Virus record (IMG/VR): IMGVR_UViG_3300020175_000005
Location: 1 to 64,000 of that record
Reading direction: 5' to 3' (one strand)
Source: a virus
Length of the DNA stretch: 64,000 bases
The notes beneath the pieces were generated by a model, which ran no database searches, was not told the DNA's origin, and saw only the letters and a program-made list of their open reading frames with translations. This document shows, piece by piece, positions 5,358 through 63,674 of this stretch. How positions within the stretch are numbered: position 1 is the stretch's first letter; each line of letters starts with the position of its first letter. A program made the translations under genes and the position numbers.

Positions 5358-6080
5358 CTAAAAGGCTAGTATCTCATTCCAGGACATGTTTGCAATATCT
5401 TGTAATTCTGGATGACTGCATTGGTTGATGAAATTATAATCATCAATTTCCTTCTCCCAGGTGTCAATTAAATTATGCTTTCCAACAAACAAATCTACTT
5501 CTGGGCGCATAGCTTCAATTAACTGACTAAAATCTTTATTAAGCAATTTGCCAATATCTATAACCGAAAATCTATCATTTAGTTCTGACATAAGTGCAAC
5601 TTCACTGTTGTTCTTTTTAATCAGACGCTTGATTAATCTCGGTGTATCAATAGCTTGTGCATAATCCTGTGAATCTGCTGCTCCGATACTAAACTCCATC
5701 AATAAGTGGTGGTGCCTTGTACTAGACTGTGTCAAATCTATACATGCTGTAAGAAATATATCATCTGGATAATACTCTAATATTTTATTGGGATCAGTGG
5801 TATTAAAGTAAAGTGGAAGTTTTTTACCATTGGTCATTTCTTTAAATTCTGCCAGTCGATCTTCCTTTAATTGGTATCTGATATGCTGATTATAGAAACG
5901 CTCAATGTTGAGGTTATTGTGACCAAATACCCAACCATCGCTGTGTCTTGCGTAAAGTCCATATGGGCCTGGATACAATTGCCACATTGGTTTAATGTAA
6001 TCATACTCATTATAATAGATAGACACTAGTCTATTAATTAATTCATTTAAAGTATGTCCTGGACCAGCAGTGTATATCAT
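5358..6080 (-). CDS. hypothetical protein, possibly sulfotransferase-like fold
   Basis: 240-aa ORF with N-terminal Gly-rich loop (AGPGHT); weak family assignment. Confidence 0.55.
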   Translation of the reverse strand: MIYTAGPGHTLNELINRLVSIYYNEYDYIKPMWQLYPGPYGLYARHSDGWVFGHNNLNIERFYNQHIRYQLKEDRLAEFKEMTNGKKLPLYFNTTDPNKILEYYPDDIFLTACIDLTQSSTRHHHLLMEFSIGAADSQDYAQAIDTPRLIKRLIKKNNSEVALMSELNDRFSVIDIGKLLNKDFSQLIEAMRPEVDLFVGKHNLIDTWEKEIDDYNFINQCSHPELQDIANMSWNEILAF

Positions 6081-57110: not shown

Positions 57111-57111
57111 T

Positions 57112-57612
57112 GTGCGACTATTCTGTTGCTAGGTCAGTCGCCAACCCCCACGTGCTTAAATTAAGCCGCTAATGCCATTTCTGGCGCTTTATTTGCGTTT
57201 GCAATTAAAAAGTTTGTTCGCGGTAACGGCGCTTACATCCCGGTAACTCCACTCTTCTATCCTGCCTGTCGATCCTATTTCGACCCCATCATAAACACAC
57301 TATTCAAACCAAAGTAGGAAATCCATACTTCCTGTAATATTATATAATACGATTAGTATCATACAAAACCACAGTAGCCAAAATAACCAAAAGCCTAAAA
57401 ATCTGTACACCTTTTCCATAGGCAAATACTTTTCTAGAAGTGTAGTGATATCCCACACATATCTAAATTGTAGGAACCAACAAAACCATCTTACGTATTT
57501 GTTAGGTGTATTTTCTTTTGTTATCTTAGTCATTATTCCCTAATGTGTTTATGGTGGAGTCGCTGGGTACCGCCCCCAGGTCCAGTTCAGTCGTCAAATT
57601 GCTTCAACGTTA
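57112..57612 (-). ncRNA. ssrA: two-piece (circularly permuted) tmRNA
   Basis: Acceptor piece ...GGACCTGGGGGCGGTACCCAGCGACTCCACCA (CCA 57552-57554) precedes the coding piece GGGGTCGAAATAGGATCGAC (5' end 57287); G3-U70 pair; tag ANANKAPEMALAA* (57161-57202). Confidence 0.95.
57300..57533 (-). CDS. Trp-rich membrane protein inside the tmRNA intervening segment
   Basis: 77-aa ORF, AGGGA RBS, hydrophobic C-terminal half; stop codon lies in the closing stem. Confidence 0.65.
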   Translation of the reverse strand: MTKITKENTPNKYVRWFCWFLQFRYVWDITTLLEKYLPMEKVYRFLGFWLFWLLWFCMILIVLYNITGSMDFLLWFE

Positions 57613-57618
57613 CAATAC

Positions 57619-57626
57619 TATTTATA
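57619..57626 (-). promoter_or_regulatory. T4-like late promoter for the tmRNA
   Basis: TATAAATA just upstream of the acceptor piece; a TTGACA also lies at ~57644-57649. Confidence 0.7.
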
Positions 57627-57660
57627 ACATATGTATTCAGAGTTGTCAAGTATTAAATAA

Positions 57661-60141: not shown

Positions 60142-60583
60142 ACCAAGATTCTTTTTTATCACCATAATATTCACGGGCAAAGTTATTTTCAATTAGTAAA
60201 AGGCGTAAACTCACGCCATCAATAATAATATCACCTAATACTCTGCCGCCATATTTGTCCCAATTGTAAATTGCAACTTTGATAGTGGTAGCACTATCAA
60301 TTGCATCTTGTGTAAACTGACTTGCTGCTGCACCTAATATTTTTTCAGCATCACATTTGCCGCGCCAGGACTTTTCTGGAGTATCTACCCCGTATACTCG
60401 AATACTTAATTCCTGCTTTAGTGGCTCAGGCAAAAAATCAGCTTTGAATGCCACAGTGTCTCCGTCAATCACACGGGTGACTTCAAAATCATATTCTACC
60501 ATATCTGGCATATTTTCTTCGGCATAAACACTAGCTGTGCTGATTAATACAAGCATTATACTTGTTATTAGATTCTTAAACAT
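60134..60583 (-). CDS. secreted thermonuclease (SNase) family protein
   Basis: Signal peptide, RVIDGDTV, IRVYGVDTPE, DKYGGRVLG. Confidence 0.88.
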   Translation of the reverse strand: MFKNLITSIMLVLISTASVYAEENMPDMVEYDFEVTRVIDGDTVAFKADFLPEPLKQELSIRVYGVDTPEKSWRGKCDAEKILGAAASQFTQDAIDSATTIKVAIYNWDKYGGRVLGDIIIDGVSLRLLLIENNFAREYYGDKKESWCD

Positions 60584-61767: not shown

Positions 61768-61772
61768 TGTAT

Positions 61773-61848
61773 TGGCTCCTTGTGTTGGGCTCGAACCAAC
61801 GACCTACTGATTAACAGTCAGTTGCTCTACCAACTGAGCTAACAAGGA
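61773..61848 (-). tRNA. tRNA-Asn (GTT)
   Basis: Loop CTGTTAA, CCA. Confidence 0.95.
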
Positions 61849-61853
61849 ATATT

Positions 61854-62057
61854 TTACCTAGTAAAGTATTTAGTTAATACTTCTATTTGATCATCATACT
61901 CTGCGATGACTTTTAATTCTACTTCAATTGCTTCCAGGATATCGGAATGTTCTCCAATACCCACAGGGTTAGCTAAGTACACCTCAACATTTGCTTTGTG
62001 TTTAGCAATATGTCCTTGGGCATGCGCAATTGCAGCTTGGATTAGAGTCTCTCTCAT
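61854..62057 (-). CDS. conserved small phage protein
   Basis: HAQGHIAKHKANVEVYL.NPVGIGEHSDI.EAIE.EL. Confidence 0.8.
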   Translation of the reverse strand: MRETLIQAAIAHAQGHIAKHKANVEVYLANPVGIGEHSDILEAIEVELKVIAEYDDQIEVLTKYFTR

Positions 62058-62079
62058 ATCATATCTTTCTGTGATTAAA

Positions 62080-62220
62080 ATGAGAGCGTTTAACGTCTGC
62101 TCTCATAAGACGGCACGGGTTTGCCGGCATCATTCATTCAATTATTTCAAAAGAGGAATGAAACTCTTTACAGTCCTGATACCTAACCGTAGGTATTGGC
62201 GTGCTTATTAAGTAGCAACC
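62080..62220 (-). ncRNA. tandem H-type pseudoknot RNA
   Basis: Two textbook pseudoknots (62080-62112, 62133-62169) plus further hairpins. Confidence 0.6.
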
Positions 62221-62231
62221 CTTATTATAAT

Positions 62232-62307
62232 TGGTGGAGCGTATCGGGATCGAACCGATGACCCCCTGCTTGCAAAGCAGGTGCTCTCCCATCTGAGCTA
62301 ACGCCCC
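62232..62307 (-). tRNA. tRNA-Ala (TGC)
   Basis: G3-U70, loop TTTGCAA, CCA. Confidence 0.95.
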
Positions 62308-62439
62308 AATTAAAATTTACTCTTCTATGTCTTTCCTAACGTGTGTGGCTCGACACTGTCCATTTTAAATATTACCATATTGGTACGAGCTTCCTAATTA
62401 CTATATATCTATTTATGATATTAGTGTGTATATGCTAAC

Positions 62440-62640
62440 AGTTCAACGCTTTCGCTCCACGCTTCGCACTAACGACAAACACCTGCCGGCATACTTGCAT
62501 CGACCCTTTTGTTGTGACTGCGAACTCACTTCATCATATGGGACTTGGTAACCCATACTAGTTAGTGGCAAACTAACGTGTCCTTTAAACACCGAGCAGT
62601 TTTGGGACCTACTCAGGTCATCCTGGGCACCATTTGCTCA
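62440..62640 (-). ncRNA. candidate ~200-nt multi-pseudoknot ncRNA
   Basis: GC-rich non-coding spacer with about 6 hairpins and three complementary loop/downstream pairs. Confidence 0.6.
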
Positions 62641-62673
62641 ATTGTTTAACAAGGGGAACAAAACCCTTTAACT

Positions 62674-62758
62674 TGGTACGAGTAAGAGGACTTGAACCTC
62701 CACGCATTGCTGCACTAGAACCTAAATCTAGCGTGTCTACCAATTCCACCATACTCGC
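62674..62758 (-). tRNA. tRNA-Leu (TAG)
   Basis: Loop TTTAGGT, variable arm, CCA. Confidence 0.95.
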
Positions 62759-62761
62759 ACG

Positions 62762-62837
62762 TGGTGCCCCCACACGGACTCGAACCGCGGACCTACTGAT
62801 TACAAATCAGTTGCTCTACCAGCTGAGCTATAGGGGC
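62762..62837 (-). tRNA. tRNA-Thr (TGT)
   Basis: Loop TTTGTAA, CCA. Confidence 0.95.
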
Positions 62838-62840
62838 ATT

Positions 62841-63008
62841 AAACTACTTACTAGATGCGCCCTCAGTATCTCCAATCTCTCCGCACGGCCTTATTGACAT
62901 TGCCGCTCTAGTTCGACTGAAACTAGTAAAACTTGACATCTAAGCCTAACAGTTTTAGAGTTTTTAGCTGATCAACGCCTCTACACGGACGTATCTAGTA
63001 AGTAGTTT
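62841..63008 (-). ncRNA. 168-nt RNA enclosed by a long terminal stem
   Basis: AAACTACTTACTAGAT-A-CGTCC ... GGGCG-C-ATCTAGTAAGTAGTTT. Confidence 0.6.
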
Positions 63009-63020
63009 ATTCTTATTCAA

Positions 63021-63093
63021 TTGTCAAATAACGTGTTAATGTCTTTGCATCAACTTATGTATTCAATATAACGTATAATGATGTCGTTGTCAA
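63021..63093 (-). promoter_or_regulatory. tRNA-operon promoter with boxA-like element
   Basis: TTGACA-17-TATATT (63065-63093), then CGTTATTTGACAA (63021-63033). Confidence 0.6.
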
Positions 63094-63149
63094 CACCTTT
63101 TTTATTTTTCCTACGTTTTATTTATCCTTTTTATCTACGTAGATAATTA

Positions 63150-63674
63150 TTATTCTTGTATAGATGCAGATAGATTAATAATTACCGTTTGACCCTCATA
63201 AAATCTACGAGTAGTTTTTTGTGTAATTGTGGCACCACCATATTCTACAGTTGTGGTCCAGCCGCTTGCTACACTTCGTGTCTCGTTTACGTGGACTGTG
63301 CGACAACTTTCTTCCTGGCGGTAGCCAACAATTTCACGTCCGGGTTTTGCGCCTGATTTATCTGCACCAATAACACCACCTAATATTGCGCCGGCTGCTG
63401 CGCCGCCGTCGTTTCCACCAATTGCTTTACCGAGGATGCCGCCAATAATCATACCAGCTAGGGCGCCTTCACCAGCACTCCCTTTATTTTTAGAGTAGAT
63501 AGGTATATCTTTAATAGTACATTTTGTAGATGGTACTTTAACCGTTTTGTTATGATAATGAGGCACGCTGCTCAATACTGTTCCACGAACAGTAGTAGTG
63601 TTGTCATAACTTTCAGCATTGACGATAGATGTGGTCATCGCCACTGCTGTCATCGCTATCAAAAACTTTTTCAT
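63150..63674 (-). CDS. glycine-zipper 2TM (YcfJ-like) protein
   Basis: Signal peptide; GMIIGGILGKAIGG..G.AAAGAILGGVIG; paired Cys. Confidence 0.85.
   Translation of the reverse strand: MKKFLIAMTAVAMTTSIVNAESYDNTTTVRGTVLSSVPHYHNKTVKVPSTKCTIKDIPIYSKNKGSAGEGALAGMIIGGILGKAIGGNDGGAAAGAILGGVIGADKSGAKPGREIVGYRQEESCRTVHVNETRSVASGWTTTVEYGGATITQKTTRRFYEGQTVIINLSASIQE

Follow-up and report, generated by a model that had tools for sequence, protein, structure and literature searches.

Two neighbouring pseudoknots and a conserved two-hairpin RNA motif in a tRNA operon spacer of an uncultured marine jumbo phage

The 174-nt spacer between a tRNA-Ala gene and a 67-aa ORF (p67) of an uncultured marine jumbo phage consists of two layers: its first 50 nt are a two-hairpin RNA motif, and what follows forms the p67 mRNA's 5' leader. 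This leader contains two H-type pseudoknots, PK-a and PK-b, which are real and non-random in sequence. They may be lineage-specific, cis-acting structures of the p67 leader with a role in translation or stability, a reading to which we assign a probability of about 0.4. We favour it because the stems are perfect, such structures are rare, their geometry is classical, a promoter is found upstream at position 63093 and PK-b ends 22 nt before the AUG. Against it stand the lack of covariation, the existence of relatives with neither the pseudoknots nor an anti-start element, the absence of G.U pairs and the marginal energy of PK-a. The two-hairpin motif is the more general result. It marks a group of marine jumbo phages about which little is known and which encode a permuted tmRNA and tRNA sets of their own, and points to undescribed RNA biology of phage translation takeover.

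The window analysed here comprises bases 1-64000 of a 98.5-kb IMG/VR virus contig (CheckV completeness 27%). It has a G+C content of 38% and encodes 18 tRNAs, all on the minus strand (ARAGORN), and a permuted alpha-type tmRNA (57111-57653). The nearest cultured relatives of its ClpA-like protein are jumbo phages of alphaproteobacteria (~41% identity), and the source is an uncultured marine jumbo phage with its own tmRNA. All features described below for the window are on the minus strand. The genes around the spacer are ordered tRNA-Thr, tRNA-Leu, a 366-nt spacer, tRNA-Ala(UGC) with an encoded CCA (62232..62307, ARAGORN; Rfam tRNA, 66 bits), the 174-nt spacer, the 67-aa ORF and four tRNAs. A sigma-70-like consensus promoter (63065..63093) most likely drives this operon, and a terminator scan listed no minus-strand terminator between it and position 60217; the genes from tRNA-Thr to the four tRNAs are thus most likely one transcript. 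Identical hexamers with identical spacing are found in two sigma-70-like promoters of the window (63093-63065 and 58688-58660, 11 of 12 consensus matches), both of which precede a tRNA cluster.

The p67 gene (61854..62057) belongs to phrog_1811 (E 5e-34), a family common in marine cyanophages and pelagiphages (148 phage records; 2577 homologues). Pfam, a PDB sequence search and the ESM Atlas gave no lead on its function. In the transcript, tRNA-Ala and tRNA-Asn border the p67 mRNA, whose release requires tRNA processing. Its translation initiation region (62047..62070) comprises a purine-rich, Shine-Dalgarno-like stretch (62070-62065) and the AUG (62057-62055).

PK-a (62133..62169, inverted repeat I3) is formed by a 6-bp stem S1 (62169-62164 with 62155-62150) and a 7-bp stem S2 (62162-62156 with 62139-62133), with a 1-nt L1 (62163), no L2 and an A/U-rich L3 of 10 nt. 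PK-b (62080..62112; repeats D1, I1 and I2) has the same topology, with a 5-bp S1 (62112-62108 with 62098-62094), an 8-bp S2 (62106-62099 with 62087-62080), a 1-nt L1 (62107), no L2 and an L3 of 6 nt. The two structures are 20 nt apart, have no evident sequence similarity and contain 13 bp each, all 26 of them Watson-Crick pairs with no G.U. In both, the helices interleave and the loops are able to span the grooves, as in classical H-type pseudoknots; in PK-b, the 1-nt L1 over an 8-bp S2 may require one pair to fray. An A/U-rich stretch of 22 nt separates the end of PK-b from the p67 AUG. Every stem that the preliminary description had assigned to PK-a and PK-b is present where it was placed. 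Between the two lies hairpin hp3 (62111..62126, 5 bp, 6-nt loop), seen in MFE folds, which competes with S1 of PK-b since its 3' arm overlaps the first two S1 bases. Separately, seven bases in L3 of PK-a (62139-62145) are complementary to the 3' end and trailer of tRNA-Ala (62227-62233). The resulting A/U-rich long-range helix would bracket the two-hairpin motif and may be due to chance.

The rarity of such structures was assessed with a scanner for perfect H-type pseudoknots (stems of at least 5 bp, L1 0-3, L2 0-1, L3 2-12, total of at least 12 bp). On the minus strand of the whole window it matches PK-a and PK-b only, and no other match on this strand of the entire 98.5-kb contig reaches 13 bp. 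Dinucleotide-shuffled strands give 0.375 matches of at least 13 bp per 64 kb. Other marine-phage loci (1.1 Mb, or 2.2 Mb when both strands are counted) give 0.81 matches per 64-kb strand, with no case of two matches within 150 nt on either strand. Shuffling the 174-nt spacer itself, a control that the preliminary description had proposed, yielded one pseudoknot in 3 of 5000 dinucleotide shuffles and two in none. An energy-based scan that allows G.U pairs, in which the pseudoknot energies come from a crude model of our own, found PK-b to be more stable than 200 of 200 shuffles, while PK-a is marginal (P ~0.045).

From the empirical rate in phage DNA, a chance tandem pair is estimated in roughly 0.2-1% of windows, so a scan of ~250,000 windows would meet many such pairs by chance. 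This bears on the main rival explanation, namely that PK-a and PK-b are a functionless by-product that arose recently and by chance, through local duplication or template switching between repeated purine/pyrimidine blocks of the leader, and that selection has yet to remove. We regard this as somewhat unlikely, although besides the scale of the search, the exclusive use of Watson-Crick pairs fits a recent origin at the DNA level, and the region holds an 8-nt direct repeat and several inverted repeats of one word family. The shuffling and comparison results argue against an accident, as does the occurrence of two structures of the same topology so close together in non-coding, transcribed RNA beside a start codon.

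Conservation was examined at two distances. Two close relatives were identified. One is an IMG/VR contig (L083/L231), ~98% identical over the shared DNA and with 99% identity in the neighbouring 174-aa protein, which ends inside the spacer. The other, the one relative among the metagenome matches listed, is contig L111, which has 97.8% identity over 1 kb. PK-a is unchanged in both and PK-b is unchanged in L111, the sole relative that reaches it. The homologues of the pseudoknot stretch that were identified are all ~98% identical to it and carry no changes, so the stems offer no covariation. Within the 174-nt spacer, a single difference is credible, at position 62223 and outside all helices, compared with an overall divergence of 2.2%; a further difference at 62119 in L231, at the end of the contig, is probably an assembly artefact. 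The 90-nt pseudoknot stretch thus has no differences where ~2 would be expected at 2.2% divergence, which speaks weakly against a functionless by-product and, with just ~2 changes expected, is a hint only. Two homologues of the p67 protein are 90% (P0002) and 82% (P0003) identical, and a scan of genome contigs for closer relatives found nothing above 78%.

At a larger distance, a profile of the 302-aa protein encoded nearby identifies 31 loci in a related phage group with the order tRNA-Thr, (tRNA-Leu), p67 and tRNA-Ala. The p67 leaders of this group are homologous to that of the window at both ends. However, none of 13 homologous leaders (12 from the group with the 302-aa neighbour, plus L254) contains the pseudoknots, and these leaders are A-rich and weakly structured. 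Nor are pseudoknots enriched behind the two-hairpin motif at 54 further loci, three of which reach P <= 0.05, as expected by chance. No consistent upstream pseudoknot was found in 160 loci with phrog_1811 homologues, and the exact PK-b sequence occurs nowhere else in IMG/VR. The preliminary description had made covariation or conservation in related phages a check on its proposal. This check gave the proposal no support: the stems are unchanged in the ~98% relatives, and the distant ones lack the pseudoknots. The absence from the 13 distant homologous leaders and the 54 related loci indicates that the pseudoknots are lineage-specific, as the by-product explanation would have it.

Two further features of these relatives were seen. 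In L111 (1007-2020, compared with window position 61770), an insertion of ~1 kb follows a first, diverged tRNA-Asn copy that ARAGORN does not call. It contains an ORF of ~290 aa together with an incomplete, diverged second copy of the p67 3' end, followed by a second tRNA-Asn, which shows that the region was recently rearranged. In addition, the 5-nt word AGGAC occurs at least three times in the A-rich p67 leaders of relatives (L197:2619-2808, L209:3422-3665 and L254), well above a composition-based estimate of ~0.16 per 244 nt, and often stands directly after hairpin 2 of the motif (62176-62172 in the window).

The position of PK-b next to the p67 gene is accompanied by a sequence relationship between the two. 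The PK-b strand 62107-62094, which comprises L1, the 5' arm of S2 and the 3' arm of S1, nearly duplicates the p67 start region (62058-62047): an 8-nt direct repeat, whose second copy is at 62058-62051, leads into four more nucleotides that match the S1 3' arm with an offset of one base. Since this strand is close to a copy of the start, the 3' arm of S2 and the 5' arm of S1 have two possible partners, the decoy strand, which yields PK-b, and the real start. The S2 3' arm is joined to the AUG region by a 7-nt inverted repeat. An upstream ORF of 15 codons (62059..62106), read from the sequence and repeat D1, has its AUG within S2 of PK-b and a UGA that ends 1 nt ahead of the p67 AUG; it is possibly incidental.

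These alternative pairings, which can be read directly from the letters, are close in computed energy. The nested fold of the spacer (-39.8 kcal/mol, z = -1.9) includes S2 of both pseudoknots, on which each S1 would stack a further 5-6 Watson-Crick pairs. When the decoy arm is left out, a 7-bp hairpin that sequesters the AUG becomes the MFE structure (-10.4 kcal/mol). The S2 hairpin alone has -10.5 kcal/mol and the sequestering helix alone -7.1 kcal/mol, the best nested fold with the sequestering helix enforced reaches -17.7 kcal/mol against a free MFE of -19.3 kcal/mol, and the PK-b pseudoknot is put at -13.6 kcal/mol by our own crude model. The alternative states are therefore within a few kcal/mol of each other. 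Of dinucleotide-shuffled leaders, 6% attain the 7-nt anti-start match by itself, owing to the abundance of alternating purine and pyrimidine blocks in this region, and none of the 13 homologous p67 leaders of related phages contains an anti-start element.

From these pairings we infer how the leader might fold in the cell and control translation or stability. PK-b would hold a decoy copy of the p67 start region (the AUG and ~9 nt). PK-b should be the first to form during transcription, and the real p67 start would then stay open; if S1 or S2 were lost, the same outer arms could pair with the start codon region and close the p67 start. Once the tRNAs are cut out, PK-a and PK-b together might also form a compact, structured 5' part of the mRNA that would slow 5'-end-dependent decay. 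The decoy and the start pairing suggest a translational switch, with modest statistical support, and duplication alone would yield the same arrangement without any selection. If PK-b is indeed a pseudoknot-locked start decoy, it would represent a compact new design of translational control inside a phage tRNA operon.

Similar principles are known from two leaders. The gene 32 mRNA leader of phages T4 and T2 carries an H-type pseudoknot that serves as a translational operator upstream of an A/U-rich stretch. PK-b resembles it in its 1-nt L1, its lack of an L2, an L3 of 6-7 nt and the A/U-rich stretch to the start. However, gene 32 encodes a ssDNA-binding protein while the gene here encodes a 67-aa protein behind two pseudoknots, PK-b carries a copy of the start region, and the pseudoknots are not conserved across related phages. 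In the Escherichia coli rpsO leader, a pseudoknot and a hairpin are in equilibrium at the initiation site and the S15 protein traps the ribosome. Here too, alternative folds of similar energy, one of them a pseudoknot, would set the accessibility of the start, but the rpsO start lies inside the pseudoknot, whereas in the p67 leader a decoy takes this place and the real start is outside. We take the gene 32 and rpsO leaders as the closest working analogies and claim no membership of either family.

By the same analogy, the pseudoknot could be a protein operator of the gene 32 or rpsO kind, at which p67 or another phage or host factor would repress translation. The position in the leader matches, and the loop and stem plan of PK-b, followed by the A/U-rich stretch to the AUG, is that of the gene 32 pseudoknot. 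Yet p67 has no recognisable binding domain and belongs to no recognisable RNA- or DNA-binding family, and homologous genes in relatives lack the pseudoknot, which makes such an operator very unlikely. Strings of small H-type pseudoknots also stand beside a tRNA or tRNA-like module in tmRNA and in the upstream pseudoknot domain of the tRNA-like 3' ends of plant viruses. The present case differs in that tRNA-Ala is complete and ordinary, the tmRNA is 4.5 kb away and the spacer matches no Rfam model of these families.

Pseudoknot-capable structure is not limited to the p67 leader. Two smaller pseudoknots that had been noted near 62623-62592 and 58494-58469 do exist, but they are individually weak: each beats ~99% of shuffles of its own spacer in the energy scan (P ~0.01), a value reached in 2 of 56 control tiles, and the candidate at 58494-58469 has neither L1 nor L2 (both 0 nt) and is sterically strained. 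As a set, the tRNA operon spacers have more pseudoknot-capable structure than shuffles or control tiles, in line with the preliminary proposal that several of them carry pseudoknots. No credible ORF is present in the 366-nt spacer between tRNA-Leu and tRNA-Ala (62308-62673), which holds the candidate at 62623-62592. Compared with the 98% relatives, this spacer has 9 differences over its 366 nt, in keeping with background divergence.

Compact pseudoknots are known to block exonucleases, and 5' structures stabilise both bacterial and T4 mRNAs. PK-a and PK-b could therefore be a nuclease barrier, to 5'-to-3' or 5'-end-dependent decay by RNase J or RNase E, or a cleavage punctuation that saves the p67 mRNA, with no translational switch. 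The release of this mRNA from between two tRNAs, the dense structure of its leader (motif, PK-a, hp3 and PK-b) and the enrichment of structure in the other tRNA spacers are consistent with such a barrier. We nevertheless consider it quite unlikely, as relatives with the same processing problem have A-rich, weakly structured leaders.

tRNA spacers can act as sponges, as in the case of 3'ETS-leuZ, and a phage pseudo-ToxI exists. The pseudoknots might accordingly be small RNAs released from the tRNA precursor that act in trans, either as mimics of a type III antitoxin (ToxI-like) or as a sponge for a host protein. The points in favour are the fold class, shared with ToxI and pseudo-ToxI, which are likewise small hairpin-type pseudoknots of ~35 nt, and the location in a processed tRNA operon. 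Type III antitoxins of the ToxI type consist of tandem direct repeats with units of ~31-46 nt, placed before a terminator and a toxin gene (PMC3401426). In the region 61800-63200, Tandem Repeats Finder (minimum score 30) found no tandem repeats, and the two pseudoknots are unrelated in sequence. Within the spacer, the terminator scan shows no site on the minus strand. Downstream, instead of a toxin gene of the ToxN, CptN or TenpN type, we found the phrog_1811 67-aa protein without a Pfam match, and no toxin-like gene was seen in the flanking ORFs scanned, although a pure phage decoy would not need a toxin gene. The link to type III antitoxins raised in the preliminary description fails its defining test for lack of tandem repeats and should be dropped. 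Action in trans in any form appears highly improbable, given also that the structures are not conserved in related phages and stand directly against a start codon. The cis-acting leader structure described at the outset remains our preferred reading of PK-a and PK-b.

The first ~55 nt of the spacer are conserved in an alignment of the leaders, and this part corresponds to the two-hairpin motif (62172..62221, covariance model R1, 56.3 bits, E 1.8e-17), which starts after the tRNA-Ala 3' end, 10 nt upstream. In the window, P1 (62217-62214 with 62205-62202) closes an 8-nt loop and P2 (62196-62192 with 62183-62179) closes a conserved 8-nt loop. The preliminary description had listed P2 as a further hairpin (62196-62179) with a loop region complementary to downstream sequence. 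The 7-bp hairpin and the complement to its loop both exist, but the downstream pairing is not conserved (50% of cells paired). The family alignment thus identifies the third element as P2 of the two-hairpin motif and not as a pseudoknot.

A degenerate pattern of the motif is found in at least 118 IMG/VR stretches, 58 of which also have the conserved second loop. The alignment of 47 distinct copies (loci L197-L345, alignments A5 and A6) is nearly gap-free and shows a G-rich 5' start, P1, an invariant 4-nt linker and P2. P1 has 4 bp, of which two variable pairs covary perfectly, and a conserved 8-nt loop. P2 has 5-7 pairs that vary freely and covary, and its 8-nt loop is nearly invariant. Across the family, 94.4% of cells are paired, with changes on both sides in 147 cells. 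The covariation score is 0.715, compared with 0.249 for shuffled alignments and at most 0.19 for slid partners, and RNAalifold recovers both hairpins. The excess of G.U pairs (25) over A.C (10) points to a sense-strand RNA.

Copies of the motif begin 4-25 nt past the end of the upstream gene, which is a tRNA in 14 of 52 distinct copies and an ORF in most others, and P2 is followed by a U-run in 22 of the 52. With model R1, the 98.5-kb contig has a single match, and so has each of five further contigs of 80-222 kb. Of 14 loci examined, eight (L312, L279, L314, L252, L270, L345, L245 and L267) encode a permuted alpha-type tmRNA no more than ~0.8 kb from the motif, and in a ninth (L235) it is 8.8 kb away. 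The tmRNA is typically 0.4-0.8 kb upstream of the motif; in L267 it is 11 nt downstream, and in the window 4.5 kb separate it from the motif.

No family of Rfam 15 overlaps 62058-62231 even at E <= 10, and the same is true of a canonical copy in L252. At gathering thresholds, the 14 motif-bearing loci contain matches to tRNA, tmRNA and manA only. In the pistol ribozyme, three stems (P1-P3) are combined with a pseudoknot that pairs the P1 loop with the P2/P3 junction (PMC4604425). We considered it as a candidate for the motif and rejected it, as the 6 nt between the two tandem hairpins are too few to accommodate a pistol P2 and the junction; the pistol model has no match at E <= 10 in either the window copy or the L252 copy. 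The second loop of the motif has no full 7-nt complement in 10 phage tmRNAs, with one partial complement of 6 nt in L235. Among cellular genomes, the 151 examined from one bacterial class gave one weak match, and the 4 MAGs gave none. A blastn search of 50,697 cultured-phage records, a test that is insensitive for a 50-nt query, gave no match, and a literature search on the loop sequence found nothing relevant.

Judging by where the motif is placed and how often a U-run follows it, it may act at a 3' end or in processing, or be a stable small RNA that is processed with the tRNAs. It could signal processing, regulate as a small RNA or be catalytic, in each case in connection with the tRNA/tmRNA region. 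The best analogy, by description only, may be the T4 species 1 and 2 RNAs, encoded inside the phage tRNA cluster, and the 3'ETS-leuZ spacer RNA of E. coli, which are likewise structured non-tRNA RNAs co-transcribed and processed with tRNAs; the motif differs in being only ~50 nt long and in also following protein genes. We know of no similarity in sequence or model between the motif and these RNAs. It is unlikely, in our estimate, that the motif is a new class of functional RNA of tmRNA-carrying marine jumbo phages and that a pseudoknot start-codon decoy switch of this lineage stands behind it.

Other structured RNAs were seen near the motif in some loci. In L237, L282, L235, L286 and L305, a conserved hairpin is found 60-70 nt downstream of the motif and upstream of genes for an Hsp20-like protein and a 65-aa protein. 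In this hairpin, a UCUUGCU-type stretch pairs with the AGGAG ribosome-binding site, an arrangement that resembles RNA thermometers of the ROSE type. In L267, a manA RNA (5624-5830, Rfam RF01745, 69 bits) is found directly after the tmRNA, which itself directly follows the motif.
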